This document shows, piece after piece, positions 2-30,632 of a DNA stretch of 64,000 nucleotides. This DNA is from Candidatus Omnitrophota bacterium (GTDB lineage: Bacteria > Omnitrophota > Gorgyraeia > Gygaellales > Profunditerraquicolaceae), in contig JAPLLR010000016.1 of assembly GCA_026387455.1 (NCBI GenBank), forward strand, positions 6,358-70,357. Reading direction: 5' to 3'. Position 1 is the first letter of the stretch. Every line of letters starts with the position of its first letter. The translations under genes and the position numbers were made by a program. The notes below the pieces were generated by a model. That model saw nothing but the letters and a program-made list of their open reading frames with translations, was not told where the DNA came from and did not search any database.

Positions 2-529
2 GCTTTGTGTGTAGTGCAAATCGAAGTGATGCCAAGGCCTGATGAATGCAGGACCAGCGCCTATCCATGGCCAAAATATCCCCTGCTTCTTAAGACATCC
101 TCCAGCCACGAAGAAGGGGGAGAGCGACACTGGGCGGTATTGACAAAGAGCTTTATCGGGGAAAAGGGATGTGTAAAGAAGCTTTCTTGCGTAAGGGTGG
201 AGTTTACTCAAGAAAAGGCTTTAACCTGCGCTATTATGAAAGAGGTTAGGGGAAGCGAATTTGAGATCGAGGCGGATCTGGTGATACTGGCTATGGGTTT
301 TCTGCACCCTGAGCATCCGGGCCTGCTTACTGACTTGAAAGTCAAATTTGACGAGCGGGGCAATGTGTCAACTGATTCAAATTATGTGACCTCAGTGGAA
401 AAAGTTTTTTCCGCGGGAGATATGCGGCGCGGGCAATCGCTGGTGGTCTGGGCGATTTCAGAAGGAAGACGCGCAGCTTATTCTATAGACAAATACCTGA
501 TGGGTGAAAGCAATCTGGCGATTATATAG
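2..529 (+). CDS. gltD: Glutamate synthase small subunit-like NAD(P)H oxidoreductase, C-terminal part. The gene starts upstream of the window.
   Basis: The open frame runs off the 5' edge. The C-terminal motifs EADLVILAMGF and FSAGDMRRGQSLVVWAISEGRRAA are typical of GltD and pyridine-nucleotide-disulfide oxidoreductase C-termini. Confidence 0.55.
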   Translation, partial: ALCVVQIEVMPRPDECRTSAYPWPKYPLLLKTSSSHEEGGERHWAVLTKSFIGEKGCVKKLSCVRVEFTQEKALTCAIMKEVRGSEFEIEADLVILAMGFLHPEHPGLLTDLKVKFDERGNVSTDSNYVTSVEKVFSAGDMRRGQSLVVWAISEGRRAAYSIDKYLMGESNLAII

Positions 530-582
530 CACCCAACCTTATAGGACAGGTTGGTGTTCAGCTTTCTGCTGAAGGGGGTAAT

Positions 583-3150
583 ATGATAAGCACAGGGATA
601 AAAGGTTTAGACAATGTGATTACCGGACTTCGGGCCGGAGATAATGTAGTCTGGCAGATAGATGATATAGAAGACTATATCGACCTGGTGAAGCCGTTTG
701 TGCGCCAGGCCCTGGAGGAGAAAAAGAAAGTCATTTACATCAGGTTCGCTTCGCATAAAGAGCTGCTTAAACCTTCAAAAGAGATAAGGCGATATGAGCT
801 GAACGCTTATGCCGGTTTTGAGCCATTTACCACAAAGGTGAATAATATCATCACCCAGGAAGGTGTTGGCGCGTACTATGTTTTCGATTGTCTGTCGGAA
901 CTTCTTTTGGCTTGGGCTACTGACCTGATGATTGGTAACTTTTTTATGGTGACCTGCCCGTATCTTTATGAGCTTAAGACCCTGACTTATTTTTCGATAA
1001 TGCGTAATAACCATTCCTTTAAATCCATAGCCCGTATCCGCGAGACTACACAGCTATTAATGGATGTGTATCACTGTGAGGGCAATCGTTTTATTCATCC
1101 CTTAAAGGTCTGGAACCGTTATTCCCCTACGATGTTTCTGCCCCACCAAAAAGAAGGCGATAAGTTTATCCCTATAACTGACAGTGTGAATGTCACGAAC
1201 ATCCTAACCTATATCCGGGAAAAAGGTGCGGAGAGCGCAAAGAGGAATCTGGACTATTGGGACAGGCTGTTTCTTGAGGCAGAGGAGCTGATCAAGGGTA
1301 AGGCCTCAGAGGAGCGTAAGAAAGAGATGGTCAAGAGGCTTTGTAGCATCATGATCGCAAAGAATAAAAAGATACTATCTTTGGCAATAAGTAATTTTTC
1401 GCTTGAGGAGATCATCGATATAAAGTCCAGGCTGATAGGCACCGGGTTTATCGGCGGCAAAGCCGTGGGGATGCTTTTGGCCAGGAAAATACTTTTTAAA
1501 GCCAAACAGCTTGACTGGCAGAAGCTTTCTGAGCCGCATGATTCATTTTACATAGGTTCAGATATATTCTATTCATATGTCGTTGAGAACCGCTGGTGGA
1601 AATTGCATATGCAGCAGAAGACCGACGAGGGATATTTTAATATCGCTAAAGTCATGAAAGAAAAGATGCTCTACGGGGTTTTTCCGGAAGAGATCATGGA
1701 GCATTTCCAGCAGATCATAGAATACTTTGGTTCTTCTCCCATTATCGTGCGCTCAAGCTCGTTATTAGAGGATGATTTCGGAAACGCGTTTGCCGGAAAA
1801 TACGAAAGCATATTTTTGGCGAATCAGGGCACCCCCGAGCAAAGGTATATCCAGTTCGCAGAGGCGGTAAGAAATGTCTATACCAGCACTATGAATGAAG
1901 ACGCGCTTACTTACAGGAAGCAAAGGGGCCTGGATAAGTCGGATGAGCAAATGGCGCTTTTGGTGCAGCGGGTTTCTGGGGATTACCACAAACAGTATTT
2001 TTTTCCCGACCTTGCCGGAGTGGGAGTTTCCTACAATACTTATGTATGGAATAAAGAGATCAATCCTGAGGCGGGGATGCTCAGGCTGGTATTCGGCCTG
2101 GGCACCAGGGCAGTCAATCGCGTGGAAGGAGATTATCCCAGGATGGTGGCGCTGGATGATCCTTTACGCAGGCCCTATGCGGAAAAAGATGACCTGAGGA
2201 AATATTCGCAGCATGAGGTCGATCTCATAGACATCAAGGCCAATGAACTCAGGACTGTTCCTTTTGAAAAAGTTGTAAGCGAAAAATCCTATACCGATAT
2301 AAGTCGCGTAGCGGTAAAAGATTATGAGTCGATGAAGATGATGGCTGAAAGGGCGGGAAAAGACAAAGAGTATTGGATTCTAACGCTGGATAACTTGTTT
2401 AAGGATGATGCTTTGGCAGGTTCCCTGAAAAATATTCTGAAATCTCTTGAGAAAAGCTATTATTATCCTGTGGAGATAGAATTCACCGTAAACTTTATTA
2501 AGGACGGTACTTTTAAGATTAATCTTTTGCAATGTCGGCCGTTGCAGACGCGCGGTATCGGCAATAAAGTTACTATTCCCGAACAGGTGAAGAAAGAGAA
2601 TATCTTTTTTGAATCGCGTGGATATTTCTTGGGCGGGAATATTTCGCAGAAGATTTCCTGGATTATTTATGTGGATCCCGGAAAGTACACCAAGCTTGTG
2701 TTATCGGATAAGTATGAGGTCGCCCGCATAGTGGGTAAGTTAAACCGGATCATAAAAGATAAGGAGGAGCTCCCTACTCTTTTGATGGGCCCGGGCAGAT
2801 GGGGTACAACCACTCCTTCGTTGGGTGTATCAGTGAAATTCGCAGAGATCAATAATATAGCTGTCCTGGCAGAGGTTGCTTTTTCAGAAGGAAATCTTAT
2901 GCCGGAGCTTTCTTACGGAACGCACTTTTTCCAGGACTTGGTCGAGACAAATATATTCTACGTTGCGCTTTTTCCGGAGAAAAAAGAAGTGATTTTTAAT
3001 AAGGGGTTGTTTACGCAGTCAAAAAGTCTTTTTGGGGAACTTATACCCGAATCCACCAAGTTTGAGGATGTCGTCGGCGTCTACGATGTAAGTAGTAAGG
3101 GCTTAAAAATAATGTCAGATGTGGTGTCTCAGAGAGTGATATGTTTCTAA
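583..3150 (+). CDS. Large PEP/pyruvate-binding (PPDK_N, ATP-grasp) domain protein. It has an N-terminal degenerate KaiC/RecA-like domain and a C-terminal domain of unknown function.
   Basis: The N-terminus (TGIKGLDNVITGL...YVFDCLSELL) resembles a KaiC/RadA fold but has no Walker A motif. The middle matches PEP-synthase N-domain motifs (GGKAVGMLLARK; IVRSSSLLEDDFGNAFAGKYESIF; LQCRPLQT). No phospho-His swivel motif is seen. ATG follows a GAAGGGGG RBS. Confidence 0.6.
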   Translation: MISTGIKGLDNVITGLRAGDNVVWQIDDIEDYIDLVKPFVRQALEEKKKVIYIRFASHKELLKPSKEIRRYELNAYAGFEPFTTKVNNIITQEGVGAYYVFDCLSELLLAWATDLMIGNFFMVTCPYLYELKTLTYFSIMRNNHSFKSIARIRETTQLLMDVYHCEGNRFIHPLKVWNRYSPTMFLPHQKEGDKFIPITDSVNVTNILTYIREKGAESAKRNLDYWDRLFLEAEELIKGKASEERKKEMVKRLCSIMIAKNKKILSLAISNFSLEEIIDIKSRLIGTGFIGGKAVGMLLARKILFKAKQLDWQKLSEPHDSFYIGSDIFYSYVVENRWWKLHMQQKTDEGYFNIAKVMKEKMLYGVFPEEIMEHFQQIIEYFGSSPIIVRSSSLLEDDFGNAFAGKYESIFLANQGTPEQRYIQFAEAVRNVYTSTMNEDALTYRKQRGLDKSDEQMALLVQRVSGDYHKQYFFPDLAGVGVSYNTYVWNKEINPEAGMLRLVFGLGTRAVNRVEGDYPRMVALDDPLRRPYAEKDDLRKYSQHEVDLIDIKANELRTVPFEKVVSEKSYTDISRVAVKDYESMKMMAERAGKDKEYWILTLDNLFKDDALAGSLKNILKSLEKSYYYPVEIEFTVNFIKDGTFKINLLQCRPLQTRGIGNKVTIPEQVKKENIFFESRGYFLGGNISQKISWIIYVDPGKYTKLVLSDKYEVARIVGKLNRIIKDKEELPTLLMGPGRWGTTTPSLGVSVKFAEINNIAVLAEVAFSEGNLMPELSYGTHFFQDLVETNIFYVALFPEKKEVIFNKGLFTQSKSLFGELIPESTKFEDVVGVYDVSSKGLKIMSDVVSQRVICF

Positions 3151-3161
3151 CTTTTAAGAAC

Positions 3162-4127
3162 TTACCATTTGAATCCTATCCCCGCTTTGACGGTTACGTC
3201 TTTGCCATCTTTTAGTGCCTGTAAAAAGATATCGCCGCAGCCGTTAAGGATAGATTTGTTAAGTTTCAGGTTTATTCCCAGTTCTTTGTGTAGGTTGTTT
3301 CTTAATTTTAATTCAAGATTTGTCCTGTTTGCAATCCTGCACTCTGCCCCAAAGACGATGCTGCGGATCTTTCCTTCTTCGTAAGGCATCTCAAATAAGA
3401 GTCCGAGTTTTTCGAATATTCTCCACGAGCCAAAGAGCAGAAGTTTTTTCTTCTCTGGCTTTAAACCTATTCCTAGTTCGTATTCCAGACCACGCTTTGC
3501 CGGCTTACCCAGACTCACCTGAAAATTGAATCCGGAGTCTAACTCTTTATTCAGGACATAGGATACGCGGTTTTTCTCGGTTATATCCCAGTAGCCTTTA
3601 AAGGTGATGCTGTGGGCAATTTTTTCCTTTCGCTTTAAGCCGGTCTTGGTATAGGTATAAATGATTTGATTTTGTTTGTTCACTTCCCAGGCGCCGACAA
3701 GGATAAGGGTGTCGTATAAGTCATTTTCTTTTGCTATTAGGAAGCTGAGCCGATTATAAGCATCAACCTGCCATTTTCCGCTAAGTTTTAGTATGCTCAG
3801 GTGTGTCCTGCCTGTGGAATCTTTGCTGGTTATACTGAAGGCTAGCTCATCAGCTCTTGCGTCGATGATCTCGCCGGCTAGGGTCAACTTGTCTGCGGAC
3901 GGATTATTTTCTCTATCCAGCGTAAGTGCTAGATTGTGCCCATTATCCAAAGACCACTTTCCTGAAAGTCTTAGCTGTTGTGGTACGCCTGAGGGCAGGG
4001 GCTGTTTGACGCGGTAGGTAAGGGCGTTAGTTCTATCGATATCAAACTCTCCATCCAGCGCTACGCGCATGATTTTGAGCCTGCCGGAGGGGTCGATACC
4101 GTATTCTACTGTTTCATTCTTTCGCAT
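3162..4127 (-). CDS. Hypothetical protein, beta-rich and repetitive, with no signal peptide.
   Basis: A 321-aa ORF convergent with the upstream gene. It has a repetitive K/G/L-rich beta-strand-like composition and no recognisable motif. Confidence 0.4.
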   Translation of the reverse strand: MRKNETVEYGIDPSGRLKIMRVALDGEFDIDRTNALTYRVKQPLPSGVPQQLRLSGKWSLDNGHNLALTLDRENNPSADKLTLAGEIIDARADELAFSITSKDSTGRTHLSILKLSGKWQVDAYNRLSFLIAKENDLYDTLILVGAWEVNKQNQIIYTYTKTGLKRKEKIAHSITFKGYWDITEKNRVSYVLNKELDSGFNFQVSLGKPAKRGLEYELGIGLKPEKKKLLLFGSWRIFEKLGLLFEMPYEEGKIRSIVFGAECRIANRTNLELKLRNNLHKELGINLKLNKSILNGCGDIFLQALKDGKDVTVKAGIGFKW

Positions 4128-4281
4128 TTATTAATAATAGCACAGCCGGTAGGCAAATCCTATTGTAAAGGTATATTTTTCGCGGTAGAATATTGATTCG
4201 CACGAGAGAAAGTTTAGAGCTCATTTTACCCCCAATTTTATGGGATAAATTGGGGTTGAGCTTGTGCTCAAGGAGGAAAAG

Positions 4282-5235
4282 ATGTTTAGAGAAAAAATTA
4301 AAGTTTTAGACTGCACTATCAGGGACGGTGGTTTGATCAACGATCATGATTTTGACCTGCGCTTTGTGCGCGCGGTGTATAAGGCGTTGGCTGAGGCAGG
4401 CGTCGATTATATGGAGATCGGGTATAAGAACTCCAAGAAGCTTTTTGACCCTAAAAAGTTCGGGAAATGGAAATTTTGCGATGATGATGATATCAGAAAA
4501 GTCATAGAGGGCATAGAATCCAAGACCAAGATCTCGGTGATGGTGGATGTGGATAGGGTAGATATGGACGATATCTGCCTTAAAAAAGACAGTCCCGTGG
4601 ATATGGTTAGGGTTGCTACTTACATTAAAGACGTGGATAAAGCCATACATCTTGAGAACAACTTTGCTGTCAAGGGGTATGAGACTGCGGTGAATATCAT
4701 GGCCATATCTAAGACCCTGGATAATGAGCTTACTGAATGCCTGTATCAGCTGGAACAGGAGAGCAAGGCAAAAATAATTTACATCGTGGACAGTTTCGGA
4801 TCTCTTTATCAGGAGACCACCGAGTTCCTGATCAAGAAAGCAAAGCATATCCTCAAGACCAAAGAGGTAGGAATTCATGCCCATAATAACCAGCAGCTGG
4901 CTTTTGCCAACAGCATTGAGGCGATTATTCACGATGCCAATTATGTGGATTCTACTATCTACGGCATGGGCCGAGCCGCAGGAAATTGTCCTACGGAATT
5001 ATTATTGGGATTCTTAAAGAATCCCAAATATGATATCCGGCCGGTCCTGGATGTGATCTCTAAAGAGTTCATTCCTTTGAGGGAGAAGATGGAGTGGGGT
5101 TATATTATCCCTCATGCTATTACGGGAATTCTTGATGAGCATCCGCGTACGGCAATAGCTTTGCGCGAGAGCGACAAGAAGGAAGATTATCGTGAGTTTT
5201 GGGAGAGCTTGGTAGGAGAGGATGACGGGGAGTAA
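4282..5235 (+). CDS. HMGL-like aldolase (4-hydroxy-2-oxovalerate aldolase / pyruvate carboxyltransferase family).
   Basis: The N-terminal motif VLDCTIRDGG and the HAHNN motif are typical of DmpG/LeuA-like TIM-barrel aldolases. The start is taken at the ATG after the GCTCAAGGAGG RBS; the ORF track begins at an upstream GTG. Confidence 0.6.
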   Translation: MFREKIKVLDCTIRDGGLINDHDFDLRFVRAVYKALAEAGVDYMEIGYKNSKKLFDPKKFGKWKFCDDDDIRKVIEGIESKTKISVMVDVDRVDMDDICLKKDSPVDMVRVATYIKDVDKAIHLENNFAVKGYETAVNIMAISKTLDNELTECLYQLEQESKAKIIYIVDSFGSLYQETTEFLIKKAKHILKTKEVGIHAHNNQQLAFANSIEAIIHDANYVDSTIYGMGRAAGNCPTELLLGFLKNPKYDIRPVLDVISKEFIPLREKMEWGYIIPHAITGILDEHPRTAIALRESDKKEDYREFWESLVGEDDGE

Positions 5236-5868
5236 ATGGACGTAGCAATTTTCAAGAAAAAGCCGCTTTTGGGAATTTTGCGTGGAGTAAGTGCTGAATG
5301 TATCGAGCCGCTGGTTGAAACAATGGTAGCCTCAGGCTTAGAGACCATAGAGATCACCATGAATACAGCGAATGCCCCGGAATTGATCAAGAAGGCAAAG
5401 CAACTCGCGAGGGGGCGTTTGGTGATTGGCGCTGGGACTGTGCTTACCCTGGATAGTCTCAAAAACGCTTTGGATAGCGGAGCTACCTTTATAGTGACTC
5501 CGGTGTTAGTGGAGGATGTAGTCGGGTATTGCGTCAAGAATAAAATTCCGGTTTTTCCCGGAGCGCTGACCCCGACAGAGATTTATCATACTTGGCAGGC
5601 GGGGGCTACAATGGTAAAAGTCTTCCCGGCAAAATTATTCGGTCCGGGATATTTTCGCGAGATCCGCGGGCCGTTTGATGATATTCAGCTTTTAGCCTGT
5701 GCCGGAGTGACGCCGGAGAATATGTCAGAGTATTTTGCTTGCGGAGCTAACGCGGTTTCTTTCGGGGCAAGCGTTTTTAGAAGAGAGTGGCTGGAGGCAG
5801 GAGATTTTAAGGCAATCGGTGAGGCAGTAGAAAGGTATATCGACGCCGCGAAAAAGAATATTATTTAA
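5236..5868 (+). CDS. eda: 2-dehydro-3-deoxyphosphogluconate / 4-hydroxy-2-oxoglutarate aldolase (KDPG aldolase family).
   Basis: Matches the Eda family pattern (LGILRGVSAE...ETIEITMNT...GAGTVLT...FIVTP). The start overlaps the stop of the upstream gene. Confidence 0.7.
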   Translation: MDVAIFKKKPLLGILRGVSAECIEPLVETMVASGLETIEITMNTANAPELIKKAKQLARGRLVIGAGTVLTLDSLKNALDSGATFIVTPVLVEDVVGYCVKNKIPVFPGALTPTEIYHTWQAGATMVKVFPAKLFGPGYFREIRGPFDDIQLLACAGVTPENMSEYFACGANAVSFGASVFRREWLEAGDFKAIGEAVERYIDAAKKNII

Positions 5869-5870
5869 GG

Positions 5871-5898
5871 TTGACAATTTTAGGAAATGTGCTATACT
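5871..5898 (+). promoter_or_regulatory. Sigma70-like promoter (TTGACA, 16-nt spacer, TATACT) with a leader of about 120 nt for the cold-shock gene.
   Basis: Near-consensus -35 and -10 hexamers with correct spacing. Long 5' UTRs are typical of cspA-type genes. Confidence 0.5.
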
Positions 5899-6018
5899 CC
5901 TTTCAGTAGTAAATAAGATTAGGAGTCTAGAGGCCGCGAGGTTTTTGATAACTAACCTGGCGGTTTTTTTATATCTGCTGTTATTTACTATAAATTGAAG
6001 GGAAGGAGGTAGTAAATA

Positions 6019-6219
6019 ATGGCAAAAGGAAAAGTGAAGTGGTTTTCAGATCAGAAGGGTTATGGGTTTATCACACCTGAGTCGGGTAGCGATGTGTTTG
6101 TGCATCATAGCGCGATCCAGGGTGAGGGCTATAAGTCTTTAGCCGAAGGACAGGATGTCGAGTTTGATATCGAAAAAGGTCCTAAGGGTGAGCAGGCTAC
6201 TAAAGTTGTAAAACTTTAA
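6019..6219 (+). CDS. cspA: Cold-shock protein (CspA family).
   Basis: [34 protein letters not shown]... is a canonical cold-shock domain with RNP1/RNP2 motifs. A strong AGGAGG RBS is present. Confidence 0.9.
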
Positions 6220-6228
6220 CCTGATTCA

Positions 6229-6266
6229 AACAAAGCCCGGCTTCATAAAGAGGCCGGGCTTTTTAT
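6229..6266 (+). terminator. Rho-independent terminator after the first csp gene.
   Basis: AAGCCCGGC-ttcataaagag-GCCGGGCTTTTTATTT: a perfect GC-rich stem followed by a T-tract. Confidence 0.8.
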
Positions 6267-6315
6267 TTGCCCCTGTGGGGTATTTTACTTACCCCTAATA
6301 GAGGGCTTATATTAA

Positions 6316-6374
6316 CCCCTCGCCTAAACATCCCGAAAATCTCTTCGATATTTTCGGGATAGGCTTCGGGGTAG
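6316..6374 (+). repeat. Structured intergenic element, copy A: CCTCGCCTAAAC - hairpin - AGGCTTCGGG. The stems differ between copies but stay base-paired.
   Basis: Shares its flanks with copies at 33103-33168 (+) and 59164-59230 (-). The central 11-bp stem has a different sequence in each copy but remains self-complementary. Confidence 0.6.
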
Positions 6375-6458
6375 GCCCCTTCCTTAATAGGATAGGAAGG
6401 GCCACCCCCGTGGGGTAGTTTACCTACCCGTAATAGCGGGTAAATTAAGGAGGTTCTT

Positions 6459-6659
6459 ATGCATACAGGAACAATCAAGAAATTGGTCCGCGAAAGAGGT
6501 TTTGGTTTTGTCAGTGATACAGACGGCAGAGAGTTGTTCTTTCACCAGTCTGGGCTGATTGACGCTAAGTTTGATACTTTAAATGAGGGGCAGGCGGTAA
6601 CTTTTGAGGTTGAGAAATCAGATAAGGGGCCGCGGGCGATCGATGTGCGCATTGCCTAA
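6459..6659 (+). CDS. Cold-shock domain protein (second copy).
   Basis: GTIKKLVRERGFGFVSDTDGRELFFHQSGL is a cold-shock domain. An AAGGAGG RBS lies 7 nt upstream. Confidence 0.85.
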   Translation: MHTGTIKKLVRERGFGFVSDTDGRELFFHQSGLIDAKFDTLNEGQAVTFEVEKSDKGPRAIDVRIA

Positions 6660-6699
6660 GCTTAGGAGCGCTTTCGCAGGGAAAATTTATTGAAAAAAT

Positions 6700-8388
<1,689 letters not shown>

Positions 8389-8389
<1 letters not shown>

Positions 8390-9492
8390 TGAAAGAAGCG
8401 ATTTTAGCCCTAGAAGACGGAAAGATTTTTAAAGGGAAATCTTTTGGCGCCCAAGGTGAGCGGACCGGCGAGGTGGTTTTTAACACCAGCATGTCCGGAT
8501 ACCAGGAGATCATTACTGATCCTTCCTATAAGGGCCAGATTGTGACTATGACCTATCCTTTAATGGGTAATTATGGTGTAAACACCGAAGACGTGGAGTC
8601 GCGTAAGCCGTATCTCGAAGGTTTTGCGGTACATGTTTACAGCAAGATTGCAAGCAACTGGCGCAAGGATCAAGCGCTGGGAGACTATCTTAAGGAGAAT
8701 AATATTCTAGGTATTGAAGGTATTGATACCCGTGCTCTTACCTTGCATATTCGTTTAGCTGGTGCGATGAAAGCGGTTTTATCTACCGTAGACCTGAATG
8801 AGAAAAGATTAATAGAGAAAGCTAGAAAATCCAAAGGCCTGGTGGGAGTAGATCTGGTCAAAGAGGTTACTTGCACTAAGAAATATATTTGGGGTAAGAT
8901 AAAGAAGGCAAAATACAGGGTGGTGGTTCTGGATTGCGGAGTTAAATATAATATCCTGCGTGAGTTGTTTAAGCGCGGATGCGAAGTGATGGTAATGCCG
9001 GCAACTGTTAATAGCGGTGAGATCCTTAAACTTAAGCCTCATGGCTTGCTGCTTTCAAATGGGCCCGGTGACCCCGCGGCAGTGAGATATGTGGTTACGA
9101 CTGTAGTCCAGCTTATCGGAAAATTGCCGATTTTCGGGATATGTCTTGGTCAGCAGATGTTGGGTTTGGGCTTGGGGGCAGATACCTATAAATTAAAGTT
9201 CGGACACCACGGAGCCAATCAGCCGGTGATGGATCTGAAGACGAAAAAAGTTTTGATTACTAGTCAGAATCACGGATTTTGCGTTAATATTGATTCATTA
9301 CTAAGGAAGAATATCGAGATCACTCATGTTAATTTAAACGACAATACTCTGGAAGGGTTTAAGCATAAGAAATTTCCGGTGTTCTGCGTGCAGTTTCATC
9401 CTGAGGCTTCTCCCGGTCCGCACGATGCCGAATATTTATTTGATAATTTTATCCAGCTGATGAAAAAACATGCCAAAAAGAACAGATATTAA
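8389..9492 (+). CDS. carA: Carbamoyl-phosphate synthase small (glutaminase) subunit.
   Basis: Matches the CarA N-domain and its type-I glutamine amidotransferase domain (GICLGQQ...HGAN). Its start overlaps the pyrG stop. Confidence 0.9.
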
Positions 9493-11128
9493 GAAGATTT
9501 TAATAATCGGCTCGGGCCCGATAGTAATCGGCCAAGGCTGTGAATTTGATTATTCCGGCACCCAGGCCTGCAAGGTTTTGAAGCAGGAGGGGTTTGAGGT
9601 GGTGCTGGTGAATTCTAATCCAGCGACTATTATGACTGATCCCCAGCTGGCGGACCGGACTTATGTGGAGCCGATCACCCCGGAAATGGTGGCTAAGATA
9701 ATCAAGAAAGAGCGTCCGGATGCGTTGTTGCCCACTTTAGGCGGGCAAACCGCGTTGAATACCGCGGTGGCCCTGGCTGAAATGGGGGTCTTAAAGAAAT
9801 TTAAAGTTGAGACAATCGGGGCAAATATTAAAGCCATCAAAAAAGGCGAAGACAGAAGGCTTTTTAAGGAGGCGATGCTCAAAATCGGCTTAGATCTTCC
9901 CAAAAGTGATAAGGCCTATAAATTGGACGAGGCCTGCAAAGTCGCTGAAAAAATCGGTTTTCCGGTTATCATCCGGCCGAGTTTTACTCTAGGTGGCACT
10001 GGAGGAAGCGTGGCTTATAATGCAGAGGAATTCAGAGTCCTTGCCAAGCACGGTTTAGAATCCAGCATGATCAGCGAGATCCTGGTCGAGGAATCTGTGG
10101 CGGGATGGAAAGAATTTGAGCTGGAGGTTATGCGCGACCTGAAAGATAATGTAGTGATCATCTGTTCTATTGAGAACCTTGATCCCATGGGCGTACATAC
10201 CGGAGACAGCATTACTGTGGCACCCATTCAGACTCTGACCGATAAGGAATATCAGAAGATGCGCGATGCGGCTATTGCCTGTATTCGGGAAATCGGGGTT
10301 GAGACGGGTGGATCGAATATTCAGTTTGCCCTAAACCCTGATAATGGTCGCATGGTAGTGATTGAGATGAACCCCAGGGTCTCCAGAAGTTCTGCTTTGG
10401 CTTCCAAGGCTACAGGTTTTCCTATCGCGAAAATCGCGGCAAAGTTAGCTGTTGGGTATACTCTGGATGAGATTCCCAATGATATTACCCGCGTGACCCC
10501 CGCCTGTTTTGAGCCTTCTATAGATTACTGCGTGGTGAAGATCCCGCGCTTTACTTTTGAGAAATTCCCTTCCGCGGATTCTACCCTTACGGTTTCCATG
10601 AAGAGCGTGGGAGAAGCGATGTCCATAGGCAGGACTTTTAAGGAGTCTTTGCAAAAAGGCCTGCGTTCCCTTGAAATCAAGAAGTTTGGTTTAGAGAGCA
10701 TGCTTTTTACGGATATCAGAAATATTAAGATGGCTTGTGACACCCTGGAAATTATCTATCAAAAACTTGTGGTTCCCAATGCAGAGAGGATCTTTTATCT
10801 GGGGGATGCTTTTCGTGCCGGAGTGGGCATAGAGAAGATCTTTGAGCTGACTAAAATCGATCGCTGGTTCCTTTATAATATTAAAGAGATAATTGATTTG
10901 GAAAAGGAGATCGTAAAGGCCGCAAGCGTTAGTAAAGAATTATTGAAACAGGCCAAGGATTGCGGGTTTTCTGACCGACAACTGGCCAAACTTTTAGGCA
11001 AAAAAGAAGAAGATATCTATAAGCTGCGTAAGTTCTTTGGTATTACACCAGCCTTTAAATTAGTGGATACCTGTGCTGCGGAATTTCAGGCGCACACGCC
11101 GTATTTTTACTCTACCTACGATAAATAA
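9470..11128 (+). CDS. carB: Carbamoyl-phosphate synthase large subunit, N-terminal half only (split carB).
   Basis: The N-terminus [24 protein letters not shown] is followed by the first ATP-grasp and oligomerisation domains. The protein ends at ...YFYSTYDK, which is the mid-protein domain boundary (552 aa versus about 1070 aa for a full CarB). Confidence 0.8.
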
Positions 11129-11138
11129 GGTTGTAAAT

Positions 11139-11564
11139 ATGTGCTTTAGAATAATTCTATTCTGTTTATTGATTACTTCTATTTCTTATTTAGCGCAGGC
11201 GAAAGAGAAGGGTAAATTGGTTTGTTTTAAGAATGCTTGTGTGAGCGCGGAAACGGCGAGCACTCCGGAAGAAAAGCATCGGGGATTAATGTTCAGGAAA
11301 ACTCTAGGAGGGCTCTCGGGAATGCTTTTTGTCAATCAGCACGAGGGTCTATACCCATTTTGGATGAAAAATACGCTGATTTCCCTCGATATTATCTGGA
11401 TAAGTAAAGACAAAAAAGTTGTCTATATCGCAAAGAACGTTCAGCCTTGCCTTGAAACGTGTGAGGCTATTAAACCGGCTTGTCCGGCCCAGTATATATT
11501 AGAGGTTAATGCTGGATTTATTGAGAAATATCAGATTAAGGTTGGGCAAAGATTAGATTTCTAA
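11139..11564 (+). CDS. DUF192 family protein with a signal peptide.
   Basis: A hydrophobic N-terminus is followed by GLMFRKTLGGLSGMLF...PFWMKNTLISLDIIWI...YILEVNAGF, typical of DUF192/COG1430. Confidence 0.55.
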   Translation: MCFRIILFCLLITSISYLAQAKEKGKLVCFKNACVSAETASTPEEKHRGLMFRKTLGGLSGMLFVNQHEGLYPFWMKNTLISLDIIWISKDKKVVYIAKNVQPCLETCEAIKPACPAQYILEVNAGFIEKYQIKVGQRLDF

Positions 11565-11635
11565 TCAAAGCCTAAAAAATAGTCTTGATTCCCGATGTAT
11601 TTAGGCTACAATGGCTAAAGAGGAGAAAACGTATA

Positions 11636-11863
11636 ATGAAAATGATCATCGGTTTGACCTTCCCGGGTGAGCTTAAAGATGAGTCGATCATCTGCACCCT
11701 TTGCAAGAATTTCGATATCAAGCTGAATATTTTCGAGGCATCATTCTCTATGTATTCGGGATGGGCGATACTAGGTATTGAAGGCGAAGAGGAAGTGCTC
11801 AAAAAATCTTTCGATTTTTTGAGGACCAAGAACATCAACATCGAGAAAATTGAGACAAAATAA
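11636..11863 (+). CDS. Standalone NIL-domain protein (MetN C-terminal-like regulatory domain).
   Basis: MIIGLTFPGELKDESIICTLCKNFDIKLNIFEASF...WAILGIEGEEEV...NINIEKIE matches the NIL domain. The start is taken at the ATG after an AGAGGAG RBS. Confidence 0.55.
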   Translation: MKMIIGLTFPGELKDESIICTLCKNFDIKLNIFEASFSMYSGWAILGIEGEEEVLKKSFDFLRTKNINIEKIETK

Positions 11864-11902
11864 CCTCTTTCTCTGGGCGCTCCAAGGCGCCGAAAGTTTC
11901 CC

Positions 11903-13831
11903 ATGGATAAAGAAGAGGTAATAGTAGAATTTTTAAAAGGCCTACGTATCTGCCTTAATAACGCCTCGGTTTATTTCAAAGAGCATCCCTACTATATCAA
12001 ATCCGTAAACGAGTTTAAGGTTAAGATAGATTCCTTCCTTAAGTTTATCAACCCCATCAAAGTCAATATTGCGCCGGATTCGCTTTTTATTGCTGGCACC
12101 CCTTACGCCAAGTCCCAGCTTTTTACAGAGCTAGCCGCTTTTTTTCATATCCGTAAGATCAAAAGTATAGAGCTGCGTGAAGGGTTGACTATCGATGAGC
12201 TGCTTAATTTTTTAAGCGTCATCGCTCTTGCGCCCAAAGAGATTTTAAAGCGCGGCGGGGCGCAGAACATCATTAATATTGAGCATAACGCGCACTGCTT
12301 TGTGGAGCAGCTTGATTATTCTCAGTTATTGGGAAGTGTGGGGGAAGAGGCCAAAGACGTCTGGCTGTATTTGTTCGGAGAAGCGGCTCAGACTAATGAT
12401 GCGCAAAAGATCCAGCAGTGCGTGAATAATTTCGGTTCTGTGGCCGACTCGTTAAATGTGCGCGACCTTACCGAGGATGAAGAGCTTAAAGAAAATATCT
12501 GCAGTTTTTTAAGTTGCCTCAAGGACAGCCAGAAGGAAGATTATGAGAAGTGCAGCAAAGAGATGTTTAAAGCGGTGTTTAAGTATAAAGATGCTATTAC
12601 TCCTGAGCAGGCACAGAAGATCAAGGCCATATTTAAAGGCCTGAGTCAGGATCAGTTCGCGGATATACTGTTGGACGGTATTGTCAAAGACGATAATTTT
12701 GATGTTTTGAGCATGCAGCTTTTTTCCCGGCTTGCCGGAGAGGAGAGCGCGCAGGGGATCTCCTCTTCTATCTTAGCTAATGCAGGCGCTAAATCAGTGG
12801 TCAAGGAAAATCCGCATATCGCTAAAAGGGTGCACAGTCTTTTATCCGGACCGGACACCCAGTCTATTTCTGAAGGCTACCGTCACATACTATCAAGCTT
12901 GCTTAAGGATATCTCTTTTGATAAAGGGGTGTTTTTTGACCGCTCCCAGCTACATGTCAATTACCGTTATATCCTTCTGGCTCTTATTGATGATGAGCAT
13001 AAGTATGACAGTCTCAGTCTTGTGGTGAATAAGTTGGTTGAAGAATGGGAGAAGATTGTAAACGACAAGGACACCGTCTTTTTGCGTTGCGTATACGATA
13101 TTATCCGTAGGAAGAAAAAGGATAATATCGCAATCGACGCGGTATTCGTTGAGCTGGATAAACGCATGGTTGAGTTTATCGAGCATATACTTTGGGAAGG
13201 GCAGTCTTTGCCGGATTTGGAATATCTGGCTGACAGGCTAAAGAAGAGTTCTTTGGAAATTGATTTCTTTCTGGGCAAAATTTTTGAACAGGGGTGTATC
13301 AGCCCCTCAATATTGAAATTGTTTTTTAGGTCTTTCCCCGCAGAGAAAGGTAAATTCTATAAAAAGCTTGAAGCTCGTCGTGCAGATATGGATTTCCTTA
13401 GCCGGATAATCCATAGTTTAAAGAACCTTGATTCGAAGTTAGCTCTTGATGCGTTGATAAAAGTCTATGGCTTGACCAATGAGCTTGTGGGGGCAGAGAT
13501 TTTAAGAATAATGCAGGGCCTGCCTGAAATAAACGCGAATTTTACGCTTTCGATCCTTAAAAAATCCGGTGCACGCTTGAAGAAAGAGGCGCTGGGAATC
13601 TTGATGAGGGACGCGCAGTTAAGGAGGCGGGCAGCAACTACGCTACTTGGCATTTTAAGCTTGTTCGGTATGAACAATGGCCTGCTTATTGAGAATATGG
13701 ATTTATGTTCTCAGGCAGGGCTTAAAGAGGCCGGAGATTATCTTGAGTTACTAAAAAACAGGCGGTTCTTCTGGAATCGCGGAGTTAGGGAAAAGGCGAA
13801 AGTTACCTTGGAGAAGCTGAATGCTGGATAA
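11903..13831 (+). CDS. Hypothetical 642-aa helical protein. Its N-terminal domain is paralogous to the N-domain (DUF3391-like) of the downstream HD-GYP protein, and it has no HD domain.
   Basis: The N-terminal roughly 130 aa align with the next ORF (YFKEHPYYIKSVNEF versus YSTEHPMFKKSAEKAF; ELREGLTIDELLNFLSVIA versus IERIAFYKGVQAEEFNKFIIFLA). Confidence 0.5.
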   Translation: MDKEEVIVEFLKGLRICLNNASVYFKEHPYYIKSVNEFKVKIDSFLKFINPIKVNIAPDSLFIAGTPYAKSQLFTELAAFFHIRKIKSIELREGLTIDELLNFLSVIALAPKEILKRGGAQNIINIEHNAHCFVEQLDYSQLLGSVGEEAKDVWLYLFGEAAQTNDAQKIQQCVNNFGSVADSLNVRDLTEDEELKENICSFLSCLKDSQKEDYEKCSKEMFKAVFKYKDAITPEQAQKIKAIFKGLSQDQFADILLDGIVKDDNFDVLSMQLFSRLAGEESAQGISSSILANAGAKSVVKENPHIAKRVHSLLSGPDTQSISEGYRHILSSLLKDISFDKGVFFDRSQLHVNYRYILLALIDDEHKYDSLSLVVNKLVEEWEKIVNDKDTVFLRCVYDIIRRKKKDNIAIDAVFVELDKRMVEFIEHILWEGQSLPDLEYLADRLKKSSLEIDFFLGKIFEQGCISPSILKLFFRSFPAEKGKFYKKLEARRADMDFLSRIIHSLKNLDSKLALDALIKVYGLTNELVGAEILRIMQGLPEINANFTLSILKKSGARLKKEALGILMRDAQLRRRAATTLLGILSLFGMNNGLLIENMDLCSQAGLKEAGDYLELLKNRRFFWNRGVREKAKVTLEKLNAG

Positions 13832-28603: not shown

Positions 28604-29074
28604 ATGCAGATAATGGACTTTCTTTCAAAAAAAGCTATTCTTACTGATCTGAAGTCTTCGAAAAAAGAGGACGTGATTAAGGAGATGGTGGATGCGCTGA
28701 TCAATTCCGGAGATATCGAGAAGCGCAATCGTACTAAGCTTATTGATGGCCTCATGGCTCGCGAATCTCTCGGGTCAACTGCAATCGGCCAGGGCATCGC
28801 TATCCCGCACGCCAAATCGGATTGCGTTGACAAGCTCATTGCAGGATTTGCCCTTTCCAAGAAGGGAGTTGATTTTGATTCTCTCGACGGAGAGTTGGCT
28901 TACATATTTTTCTTGCTGATCGCACCGCAGGACTCCGCTGGGCCGCACTTAAAAGCGCTTGCTCGCATTTCGCGGCTTTTAAAGGATAAGTATTTTCGTG
29001 ACACGCTGCGTAGCGCTGCCGACGAAAAAGCCGTCATCAAGGCCATCAGCCTTGAGGATGAGAAAAAGTTCTAA
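28604..29074 (+). CDS. ptsN: PTS EIIA, fructose/nitrogen-type (PtsN-like).
   Basis: Matches the EIIA-Ntr family including the active-site His region (GIAIPHAKSD). Confidence 0.75.
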   Translation: MQIMDFLSKKAILTDLKSSKKEDVIKEMVDALINSGDIEKRNRTKLIDGLMARESLGSTAIGQGIAIPHAKSDCVDKLIAGFALSKKGVDFDSLDGELAYIFFLLIAPQDSAGPHLKALARISRLLKDKYFRDTLRSAADEKAVIKAISLEDEKKF

Positions 29075-29119
29075 AACCTTGGTTGGTTATAAAACCGACC
29101 GCAGTTTTTCTTTTATTAA

Positions 29120-30361
29120 ATGAAATCAAGTCTGAGCATTATAGCTAAGTGGTTATATCCGGGGATCGGGGTCAAGCGTTGGGTGGGTTTAAGCGCTTTC
29201 GGCATCTTTCTTTTGGTTTTTGGGGCGCGTTATTTGCGTTCCGAAGAGTTTTGGGTTATTCAGATACTGGACACGGTCATTGTCATATCCGGAATCATCA
29301 TCCTTATCTTAGGCATCAAGATGTTGATGCGTTCTTTTATCGCAGCCTATGTCCCCTCCTCAAAGGATTCCGAACTGGTAGATATTTTGTACCAGAGGAA
29401 GCAACTGGGGCGCGGCCCTAAAATAGTCACTATAGGCGGGGGTACGGGATTAGCGGTTCTTTTGTCGGGGCTTAAGGAGCATACTTCTAATATTACCGCG
29501 GTGGTTACTGTCGCCGATGACGGAGGGTCTTCCGGCCGCCTGCGCCAGGAATTTGACATACTGCCTCCCGGAGATATTCGTAATTGCTTGGTGGCTTTGG
29601 CTGATGCTCCGGCTTTAATGCGTGATCTTTTTCAGTTCAGATTCGATACCAATTCAGAACTTTCCGGGCACAGCTTTGGGAATCTTTTTATTACGGTAAT
29701 GACTAGGCTTACTGGAGATTTTGAAAAGGCGATTAAGGAAACGAGTAAGGTTTTGGCTTTGCGCGGGCAGGTTATTCCATCGACTCTTAATAATGTGGTG
29801 CTGGTAGCCGAGCATAAAGATGGCACTACTACGGTGGGGGAGGACAAGATTCCGCGTTCGCGTCGGCCGATCAAGCGGGTAAGCCTCGATCCGGCTGAGC
29901 CGCAGGCGACACCCGACGCCATTAAGGCGATTGAAGAAGCTCAAATCATCGTTCTTGGTCCAGGATCACTTTATACTAGTATCATCCCGAATCTTTTGAT
30001 AAAAGAGATTGCTCAGGCAGTAGCGAATTCAGGAGCGATTAAAGTGTATGTTTGCAATGTGATGACGCAGCCCGGCGAGACTGACGGCTTGAGCGTCAGC
30101 GATCAAATCAAAGAGCTGGTGGGGCACAGCCAGTCGCGAATACTGGATTACTGTATTATTAACACCGGAGAGATCCCGGTGGAGGTACTAAATCGTTACG
30201 CCAAGGAAAGCTCATATTTAGTTATTAACGATCGCAAGAAGATCGAGAGTATGGGCTACCGGACGATCGAAGATGATTTCGCGGTTATCGAAGAAGACGT
30301 AATTAGGCATGACGCTGAGCGTCTTGCGAATATTATCTTAGGTTTAGGGGAAGAGATTTAA
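29120..30361 (+). CDS. YvcK/CofD-like (UPF0052, gluconeogenesis factor family) protein with an extra N-terminal membrane anchor.
   Basis: IVTIGGGTGLAVLLSGLK...VADDGGSSGRLR is the YvcK signature. The first roughly 90 aa contain two hydrophobic helices not present in typical YvcK. Confidence 0.7.
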   Translation: MKSSLSIIAKWLYPGIGVKRWVGLSAFGIFLLVFGARYLRSEEFWVIQILDTVIVISGIIILILGIKMLMRSFIAAYVPSSKDSELVDILYQRKQLGRGPKIVTIGGGTGLAVLLSGLKEHTSNITAVVTVADDGGSSGRLRQEFDILPPGDIRNCLVALADAPALMRDLFQFRFDTNSELSGHSFGNLFITVMTRLTGDFEKAIKETSKVLALRGQVIPSTLNNVVLVAEHKDGTTTVGEDKIPRSRRPIKRVSLDPAEPQATPDAIKAIEEAQIIVLGPGSLYTSIIPNLLIKEIAQAVANSGAIKVYVCNVMTQPGETDGLSVSDQIKELVGHSQSRILDYCIINTGEIPVEVLNRYAKESSYLVINDRKKIESMGYRTIEDDFAVIEEDVIRHDAERLANIILGLGEEI

Positions 30362-30362
30362 G

Positions 30363-30632
30363 ATGCCGGTTATCAAGAAAAAACTAATAGTAAAGAATAA
30401 GCAGGGTCTGCATGCTCGCCCAGCGGCGCTATTCGTGCAGGTGGCCAATAAATTCGATTCCCGTATCACTATCAAGCGCGATGAAGAAGAGGTCAACGGA
30501 AAATCAATCATGGGTATACTTATGCTGGGCGCGGAGAAGGGCAGCGAGATTGTGATCGAGGCGGATGGCGAGGACGCAGAGACGGCCATGATCGAATTAG
30601 AGAAACTTATCGTTAACGAAGAAGATAAATGA
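30363..30632 (+). CDS. ptsH: Phosphocarrier protein HPr.
   Basis: GLHARPAALFVQ with the active-site His15 context. The regulatory Ser46 region is GKSIMGIL. Confidence 0.85.
   Translation: MPVIKKKLIVKNKQGLHARPAALFVQVANKFDSRITIKRDEEEVNGKSIMGILMLGAEKGSEIVIEADGEDAETAMIELEKLIVNEEDK

Follow-up and report, generated by a model that had tools for sequence, protein, structure and literature searches.

What does a protein do that carries the ATP-using domain of phosphoenolpyruvate (PEP) synthase, lacks the other domains of that enzyme and is encoded directly behind a gene for glutamate synthase? The question is raised by gene X, an open reading frame at positions 583..3150 (+ strand, stop codon included) of a 64,000-nucleotide stretch of DNA from a Candidatus Omnitrophota bacterium (assembly GCA_026387455.1, contig JAPLLR010000016.1), which is referred to below as the window. 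An NCBI protein labelled 'phosphoenolpyruvate synthase', from a Candidatus Omnitrophica metagenome-assembled genome (MAG), matches the 855-amino-acid product of gene X at 100% identity. A first-pass annotation, made from the sequence, had described it as an unusual fusion of an inactive KaiC-like domain to an ATP-grasp domain of the PPDK_N type (the nucleotide-binding domain of PEP synthase and of pyruvate phosphate dikinase, PPDK), and had suggested that a convergent gene for a beta-rich protein encodes a partner. Both reading frames are present exactly as given there, the second on the - strand at 3162..4127 (321 amino acids), with an 11-nt gap between the two convergent genes. We conclude that gene X belongs to a family of dikinase-type ATP-grasp enzymes that combine the ATP-grasp with a new C-terminal domain and a putative input domain of the pseudo-KaiC kind, and that this family has a probable functional tie to nitrogen assimilation.

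An intact ATP-grasp domain in a protein that is not a PEP synthase

The ATP-grasp domain, assigned from Pfam, hhalign and invariant columns, occupies residues 290-672 of the gene X protein (1450..2598, + strand). Pfam PPDK_N (PF01326) matches these residues with an E value of 4.8e-48 over profile positions 4-327 of 328, and this near-whole match upholds the claim that the domain is of full length. In an alignment of 35 diverse members of the family (A1; 35-64% identity) the motifs GGK293, R390-S-S-S-x-x-E396-D397, FAGK406 (G405-K406), E633 and Q650-C-R652 are invariant, that is, residues K293, R390, S391-393, E396, D397, K406, E633, Q650 and R652 are retained throughout. These motifs align with the PEP synthase motifs VRSSATAED, FAGQ and DIEW..LLQxRP and with the PDB structures 2ols and 9goj, and hhalign against Escherichia coli PpsA returned a match with Prob 97.5% and E 8.5e-12. 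Because the nucleotide-binding motifs are invariant and align with those of PEP synthases, the ATP-grasp looks catalytically competent as far as its sequence can tell.

Outside the ATP-grasp, the label PEP synthase is wrong by every membership test. The NCBIfam models for PEP synthase, PPDK, rifamycin phosphotransferase and PigC/RedH match the ATP-grasp only, with 15-58 bits against cut-offs of 456-1700; the best of them is NF004881 (PEP synthase; 58.4 bits, cut-off 883), while TIGR01418 scores 37.6 bits against 739.75 and the rifamycin-inactivating phosphotransferase model NF041857 scores 27.7 against 999, over residues 352-464 only. No match to the PEP-utilizers swivel domain (PF00391), which carries the catalytic phospho-histidine of these enzymes in the motif GGxTSHAA, was found in the window protein or in any of the 35 members at E <= 1, and none to the PEP-utilizers_C TIM barrel (PF02896) in the window protein or the 35 members; the chain ends 183 residues past the ATP-grasp. 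When the family profile was compared with PDB sequences, there was likewise no match beyond the ATP-grasp.

If the protein were a divergent PEP synthase or one of the other classical dikinases (for example a phosphotransferase of rifampicin or other xenobiotics, or an alpha-glucan water dikinase), this would explain why PPDK_N is present and why the best NCBIfam matches are to PEP synthase models. Such a reading would also suit the locus in Geobacter sp. OR-1, where the gene lies between an alpha-amylase-family gene and pgi. However, a protein without the mobile histidine domain and without the PEP/pyruvate TIM barrel, whose scores of 58 bits against 883 and 27.7 against 999 are all confined to the ATP-grasp, and whose profile finds ATP-grasp regions only in the PDB, is extremely unlikely to be any of these. 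The glycogen or alpha-glucan dikinase role considered on account of the Geobacter context was dismissed: that context is missing from two other loci encoding the same tandem type of protein (see below), and no carbohydrate-binding module was detected.

Compared with PEP synthase, PPDK and rifampicin phosphotransferase, the gene X protein thus has a homologous ATP-grasp with all the catalytic motifs, probably uses ATP in the same way and has a conserved histidine downstream. It differs from them in having no PEP-utilizers mobile domain and no domain for binding PEP/pyruvate or rifampicin, in adding a pseudo-KaiC domain and a C-terminal domain (C-domain) that is unrelated to theirs in sequence and whose fold was not detected, and in a genetic context of nitrogen assimilation instead of gluconeogenesis or resistance. 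We are highly confident of the three-domain architecture and that the protein is not a PEP synthase.

The N-terminal domain has a KaiC-type fold and no Walker A motif

Residues 1-200 (583..1182, + strand) form a KaiC/FlaH-like RecA-fold domain without a Walker A motif, as assigned from the AlphaFold2 model, Foldseek and invariant columns, and are followed by a five-helix linker, residues 201-285 (1183..1437, + strand), delimited by the secondary structure of the model and by per-domain identity. The N- and C-terminal domains were modelled as separate pieces; the model of residues 1-285, built with a 33-sequence alignment, has a mean predicted local distance difference test score (pLDDT) of 93.0 and a predicted template modelling score (pTM) of 0.88. 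A Foldseek search of the PDB with this N-domain model gave 593 matches at E <= 1e-3, among them KaiC (7s65_B, E 2.1e-11), FlaH (4yds, E 1.3e-10, target-normalised template modelling (TM) score 0.70) and Sso2452 (2w0m), each with probability 1.00. It can be seen that the KaiC-type fold proposed from the sequence is confirmed by structure, the sequence alone being insufficient: Pfam KaiC/ATPase families showed no match at E <= 10 to the isolated N-domain, nor to the 35 members, and a sequence search with residues 1-285 returned only sub-threshold matches to MEDS (PF14417; E 0.03-0.07) and PAXNEB/Elp4 (PF05625; E 0.04-0.12).

These two families, the sole sequence-level matches of the N-domain, are degenerate RecA/KaiC-like modules that have themselves lost the P-loop, MEDS being a predicted sensor. 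The MEDS match covers residues 23-63 only and reaches 13.4-14.5 bits against a gathering threshold of 29.8; overall the MEDS and PAXNEB scores are 13-14 bits against thresholds of 29.8 and 28. By this sequence-based criterion the gene X protein is outside both families. No Pfam, NCBIfam or PDB entry was found that covers the N-domain or the C-domain of the gene X family.

The gene X N-domain shares its fold with KaiC, FlaH and Sso2452 (Foldseek E 2e-11 to 1e-8) and keeps the N-terminal 'TGI-GLD' motif and D102, the conserved aspartate at the Walker-B position. It differs from them in that the family lacks Walker A, is fused to an ATP-grasp and has a single domain where KaiC has two. The pattern G/AxxxxGK[ST] was found in the N-domain of none of the 35 members, and in the model strand 21-26 and helix 29-45 are separated by 2 residues; the absence of a P-loop, as first claimed, thus holds for the family. 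The catalytic glutamates that follow strand 2 in KaiC are also replaced (consensus FRFAxH). The invariant columns of the N-domain in the 35-member alignment are G5, D10, G19-D20-N21, F79-E80, F101-D102, S105, H144 and R179.

The proposal that this domain is a non-catalytic scaffold is plausible. However, mean identity to the query is 44% in the N-domain, close to the 47% of the ATP-grasp, with the linker lowest at 27%, and in a sister family a receiver domain stands at the same position (see below). These two observations point to a regulatory or input role of the N-domain rather than to a scaffold.

The family is widespread and its core module recurs with other input domains

A search with the whole protein gave more than 8000 database matches. 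The best 120 of these are 77-96% identical to the query and come mostly from Omnitrophota, together with Geobacter-type proteins of roughly 50% identity; between phyla, an archaeon included, identity is 45-60%. When the N-domain alone was searched against 1.84 billion representatives, grouped in clusters at 50% identity, 913 clusters were found at E <= 1e-3 and 530 at E <= 1e-10, and among the best 150 of the 913 the domain stands at the N-terminus of proteins of 845-885 amino acids or of shorter ones that are probably fragments, with one exception, a Geobacter-type tandem protein. A scan of one genome for each species showed that at least 599 species carry the family, in Omnitrophota, Planctomycetota, Desulfobacterota/Syntrophia, Bacillota, Actinomycetota, Spirochaetota, Acidobacteriota, Margulisiibacteriota, Elusimicrobia, Gammaproteobacteria (Thiocapsa, Ectothiorhodospira) and the archaeon Methanoregula. 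The architecture, which the first-pass annotation had called unusual, is therefore fixed and not rare, with at least 913 N-domain clusters, at least 599 species and about ten phyla. Common it is, but hardly annotated: database names are either generic ('PEP/pyruvate-binding domain-containing protein') or wrong ('phosphoenolpyruvate synthase'), and a full-text literature search, with most subscription journals outside its coverage, found no study of this architecture.

The Geobacter-type proteins, of 1460-1495 amino acids, have the arrangement [PPDK_N+C]-[KaiC-like+PPDK_N+C], where C is the C-domain; this tandem fusion suggests, from domain order, that PPDK_N+C modules may act in pairs. In these proteins (encoded at 6001-10419 of locus L002 in Geobacter sp. 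OR-1; also P0009, P0016, P0021 and P0049) the second unit carries GPGRLGT where the C-domain motif is otherwise GPGRWGT.

In Bryobacterales and Solibacter, gdhA and gene X are separated by another gene, which encodes a protein of about 989 amino acids with a Response_reg domain, a faint DUF5752 match, PPDK_N and the C-domain. It is 29% identical to the gene X protein over 436 residues, including GPGRWG and SQGTHFF. A search with this receiver-type protein gave 2129 matches at E <= 1e-3, and nearly all of the best 120 share the receiver and PPDK_N make-up. The order gdhA, receiver-type gene, KaiC-like-type gene was found at loci L076 (5548-12589), L081, L108 and L109; at L090 gdhA is followed by the receiver-type gene alone, and at L089 there is no gdhA. 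In the databases some of the Acidobacteriota receiver-type proteins carry the label 'CheY-like chemotaxis protein', 'histidine kinase' or 'PEP/pyruvate-binding domain-containing protein'. Near the three-gene row there is often a gene for a Ser/Thr protein kinase that has repeats of the TPR or WD40 type.

These proteins have the same core as the gene X protein, its invariant C-domain residues and its linkage to gdhA, and their genes often stand beside one of the KaiC-like type; they differ in having Response_reg (and faint DUF5752) where the gene X protein has the pseudo-KaiC domain, and are likewise uncharacterised. From the tandem Geobacter-type proteins and the receiver-type sister family we conclude that PPDK_N+C is, as judged from these sequences, a self-standing and predicted catalytic unit with interchangeable N-terminal input domains, and that the gdhA link belongs to this core.

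A new C-terminal domain with an invariant histidine

Residues 673-855 (183 amino acids; 2599..3147, + strand) form an alpha/beta domain in the AlphaFold2 model (residues 654-855: pLDDT 92.9, pTM 0.90). The first-pass annotation had left a C-terminal domain of roughly 200 amino acids unrecognised, and so it stays, for Pfam matched it neither in the window protein nor in the 35 members, PDB sequences gave nothing, and Foldseek of the C-domain model against the PDB gave a best E value of 0.24 with TM scores of at most 0.31. Its signature is GPGRWG(T/S) ... E764 ... SxG(T/S)HFF. Eight residues, P737, G738, R739, G748, E764, S777, G779 and H781, show no variation among sequences drawn from the KaiC-like and receiver families (53 of 53 identical), and all eight are present in the window protein, with the codon of R739 (within GPGRWG) at 2797..2799 and that of H781 at 2923..2925, both on the + strand. 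H781 stands at the N-terminal end of helix 781-788 (model residues 128-135) and is a candidate phospho-acceptor or catalytic histidine. On the strength of its conservation, the polar constellation R739/E764/S777/H781 reads as an active-site-like signature.

By eye the domain has some likeness to the phospho-histidine swivel ('LLMGPGRW...AVLAEV...SYGTHFF...IFYVAL' against 'ILVTDMTDPDW...AIVTN..GGRTCHAA...IPAVVG'), which prompted a direct comparison. A swivel profile was built from 18 mobile domains, namely those of E. coli PpsA, the Enzyme I encoded in the window and 16 diverse plasmid-borne PEP synthase, PPDK, RPH-like or PtsP genes; hhalign of the C-domain profile against this 18-sequence alignment gave Prob < 1% and E about 0.08. 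The idea of a divergent swivel domain was dismissed, Pfam, Foldseek and hhalign (against the window Enzyme I, E. coli PpsA and the 18-sequence profile) all being negative, and these same tests corroborate the earlier statement that the protein has no phospho-histidine swivel domain.

Failure in every swivel test is what would be expected if there were no histidine relay at all, the ATP-grasp being a direct kinase or ligase, or a sensor of ATP/AMP, the other domains serving structure or oligomerisation, and the nitrogen context reflecting the sensing of energy charge. It is established that KaiC-family folds form rings, and the paired or tandem PPDK_N+C modules suggest obligate oligomers, both of which would suit this view. 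On the other hand, the invariance of H781, R739, E764 and S777 in 53 of 53 sequences of two families is hard to square with a purely structural role, and fully kept catalytic residues in the ATP-grasp favour turnover over mere binding. We consider the absence of a relay unlikely.

Gene X lies among nitrogen-assimilation genes in many phyla

In the window, gene X is preceded on the same strand, at a distance of 53 nt, by the 3' end of gltD (5..529, + strand), which encodes the small subunit of glutamate synthase, is truncated by the window edge and was recognised by a C-terminal Pyr_redox_2 match. It falls in one cluster with GltD genes located ahead of the gene X orthologue at loci L001, L003 and L005-L009, where gltB (1510 amino acids; GATase_2, Glu_syn_central, Glu_synthase and GXGXG) and gltD were called before that orthologue. 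No terminator was predicted by a scan of the gltD-X spacer, and co-transcription of gltD and gene X is for this reason likely. Directly after the gltD stop codon the spacer holds a perfect 9-bp inverted repeat, read from the sequence (530..555, + strand; CACCAACCT-8 nt-AGGTTGGTG), which has no T-tract and may be a processing or attenuation element; a strong ribosome-binding site, GAAGGGGG, follows it before gene X.

Open reading frames were called in 83 loci from about ten phyla and clustered by BLASTP; of these loci, the 69 that have 4 kb or more of flanking sequence were taken as informative. The commonest neighbours over the 83 loci, with identities backed by Pfam, are GltB/GltD-like proteins (29 loci including the window, in a single-linkage cluster that outside Omnitrophota may hold other flavoprotein oxidoreductases), GdhA (27), Amt with PII (12), an NrpR-type regulator (8) and GlnA (7), followed by CarA/CarB, PyrG and PurF. 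At least one of GdhA, GltBD, Amt/PII, NrpR and GlnA is encoded within 5 kb at 44 of the 69 informative loci. The arrangement varies with the lineage. Thus gdhA immediately precedes gene X in the same orientation, the called reading frames being 42-63 nt apart, in Desulfuromonas, Desulfatitalea, Desulfuromonadaceae, Bacillota, Dermatophilaceae and Bryobacterales; nrpR and gdhA are downstream on the opposite strand in Syntrophia; amtB-glnK adjoins gene X in Planctomycetota, Syntrophomonas and Treponema; glnA is upstream in Methanoregula; and gltB-gltD is upstream in Omnitrophota. Among the unrelated neighbours at loci that lack the core nitrogen genes are a nitrite/sulfite reductase and a protein of the glutamate/dicarboxylate symporter family.

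It might be argued that inherited synteny or chance accounts for such a neighbourhood, which would then carry no information on function. Many of the loci do come from related MAGs, the Omnitrophota order gltBD-X-pyrG/carAB is one inherited arrangement, and 25 of the 69 informative loci have no nitrogen gene within 5 kb. However, the nitrogen genes, their order and their orientation vary across about ten phyla, and since the arrangements differ in this way between lineages simple inheritance is argued against. In addition, gdhA precedes gene X in the same orientation in Desulfobacterota, Bacillota, Actinomycetota and Acidobacteriota alike, the independently built receiver-type family is also linked to gdhA, and we estimate that chance adjacency to a single-copy gdhA would occur in well under 1% of genomes. 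Synteny or chance is a very improbable explanation, and gene X is probably tied functionally to nitrogen assimilation.

Bacterial NrpR homologues (HTH_12 with NRD1_2) next to gene X and gdhA were seen in Syntrophia and in one Margulisiibacteriota MAG (L010, L014, L018, L020, L022, L031 and L050). A conserved small partner protein of the HPr type was also sought by clustering reading frames of 40-140 amino acids within 2 kb of gene X, and was dismissed, only shadow frames of gdhA, gltD and nrpR having clustered.

A possible role at the glutamate-forming node

The reading that we prefer overall, with a confidence somewhat below even, is that the gene X protein is an input-gated, ATP-dependent phosphotransfer enzyme at the glutamate-forming node, and not a PEP synthase. 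The ATP-grasp, with its nucleotide and Mg motifs all intact, would bind Mg-ATP. By analogy with the characterised PPDK_N enzymes, every one of which to our knowledge acts through a phospho-histidine, a phosphoryl or pyrophosphoryl group would then be moved to H781 at the N-terminus of the C-domain helix, and the phosphate would be handed on to an acceptor at the point in ammonium assimilation where glutamate is formed. The leading candidate for this acceptor would be glutamate dehydrogenase (GDH), or glutamate synthase (GOGAT), itself, as a regulatory modification, and the pseudo-KaiC domain would gate the activity through a ligand or through oligomerisation. Phosphotransfer through H781 is a tentative proposal, put forward from sequence conservation and from this analogy; that the target is a protein, GDH or GOGAT, instead of a small molecule is more doubtful. 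Equally speculative is the wider possibility that PPDK_N+C is a convergent phospho-histidine module with swappable inputs, which would provide widespread post-translational control of GDH/GOGAT in anaerobes, many other bacteria and some archaea.

Several observations weigh against such a role. In all the characterised PPDK_N enzymes the known phosphoryl acceptor is a small molecule or a glucan and never a protein. The C-domain has no detectable kinship to the phospho-histidine swivel (no Pfam match; Foldseek E >= 0.24; hhalign Prob < 1%), and since no such relationship was detected, the case for a histidine relay is one of conservation and position. The 25 informative loci without a nitrogen gene within 5 kb count on the same side, as does the breadth of the GltB/GltD-like cluster, and the tandem Geobacter-type genes have unrelated and inconstant neighbours. 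Finally, neither the NrpR operator (GGAA-N6-TTCC, of the methanogen type) nor a sigma-54 promoter was enriched upstream of gene X.

A small-molecule reaction would fit the first of these points. The protein might be a dikinase or ligase of the glutamate/2-oxoglutarate/ammonium node, acting for instance on glutamate, 2-oxoglutarate or ammonia, with the N-domain as an allosteric site, and thus a missing enzyme and not a regulator. The established substrates of PPDK_N enzymes are pyruvate, rifampicin, phenol, flavonoids and starch; for a regulator, the sequence is very highly conserved (77-96% among the closest homologues, 45-60% between phyla); the polar constellation of the C-domain is typical of an active site; and an operon with gdhA fits consecutive reactions. 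However, no second pathway enzyme co-occurs consistently beyond the standard assimilation genes, the known reactions of the glutamate node leave no vacancy for an enzyme of this type, and the fusion to a receiver and the many different nitrogen genes look more like signalling. We regard a small-molecule reaction as possible but not likely. Since the core is fused to a receiver and so wide a range of nitrogen genes is involved, regulatory action on GDH/GOGAT is rated slightly above it.

Known systems offer two parallels for a regulator of this kind. Enzyme I-Ntr (PtsP) combines a GAF sensor with a phospho-histidine-generating enzyme of the PEP-utilising superfamily and reports nitrogen status. 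It is the closest functional analogy that we find, in that a sensor domain is fused to a phospho-histidine enzyme, and the likeness is one of function only: unlike the gene X protein, it uses PEP, has the canonical swivel and TIM barrel and has no ATP-grasp. In Actinobacteria, PknG-GarA/OdhI places GDH, GOGAT and 2-oxoglutarate dehydrogenase under kinase-driven control, which is a precedent for a kinase switch at the same metabolic node, although a Hanks kinase and an FHA protein are involved that are unrelated to the gene X protein. The latter belongs to neither the Enzyme I-Ntr nor the PknG-GarA family.

Surroundings of gene X in the window

The convergent 321-amino-acid gene (3162..4127, - strand) encodes a repetitive beta-rich hypothetical protein without a Pfam, NCBIfam or PADLOC match. 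Its family has 194 members, the named ones almost all from Omnitrophota. The suggestion that it is a partner of gene X was not sustained and was dismissed: the gene is absent at the orthologous position in L001 and L003 (other Omnitrophota and Elusimicrobia), and three homologues (L084-L086) have no PPDK_N gene within 5 kb. An anti-phage defence system was also considered and dismissed, PADLOC models matching neither the 855- nor the 321-amino-acid protein.

Further downstream on the + strand are pyrG (6746..8389) and carA (8389..9492), both assigned from translation and neighbour cluster. In L001 and L003 pyrG or carA comes directly after gene X, without the genes inserted in the window. These include genes for two aldolases, one HMGL-like (4264-5235) and one of the KDPG/KHG type (5236-5868), neither of them inserted there in L001 or L003; the pair recurs in the Omnitrophota contig L085 (8664-10264), about 3 kb from a homologue of the 321-amino-acid gene. 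Between two cold-shock-domain-like reading frames of 66 amino acids (6019-6219 and 6459-6659) lies a strong terminator-like hairpin of 13 pairs (6232-6262), and the two best sigma-70-like promoter matches of the region are at 5871-5898 and 6700-6727. In the carB region (9464-13831) a reading frame of about 552 amino acids (9470-11128) clusters with CarB and is followed, after a gap of about 730 nt, by one of about 655 (11864-13831); carB appears to be split or interrupted.

A cluster resembling a regulatory phosphotransferase system is found on the + strand at 28604-32359, with EIIA-2/PtsN-like (28604-29074), CofD/YvcK-family (29120-30361), HPr (30363-30632) and Enzyme I (30629-32359) genes and no sugar permease gene among the reading frames checked. 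Its Enzyme I, used above in the swivel comparison, has PEP-utilisers_N, the mobile domain and PEP-utilizers_C; it, HPr and EIIA-2 are of the ordinary kind. GC skew, taken in 2-kb bins over the whole window (1-64000), is positive throughout (0.05-0.21), and the long reading frames are almost all on the + strand, so the whole window seems to lie on one replichore with a strong gene-strand bias.

Concluding remarks

With respect to the first-pass annotation, what has been added is the tie to nitrogen assimilation across phyla and the sister family; what has been reduced is the rarity of the architecture and the beta-rich partner. A large, highly conserved protein, predicted to use ATP and mislabelled as PEP synthase, is encoded beside gdhA, gltBD, amtB-glnK, glnA or nrpR in Omnitrophota, Planctomycetota, Desulfobacterota, Bacillota, Actinomycetota, Acidobacteriota, Spirochaetota, purple sulfur bacteria and a methanogen. 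If the link holds, a widespread annotation error, which inflates the gluconeogenic capacity predicted in MAG-based metabolic models, would be corrected, a new domain with an active-site-like signature would be defined, and the family would become a concrete candidate, open to experiment, for a regulator or enzyme that is missing from glutamate formation. Whatever its target, the union of a dead KaiC fold with a live ATP-grasp would be a further example of pseudo-ATPases reused as input modules.

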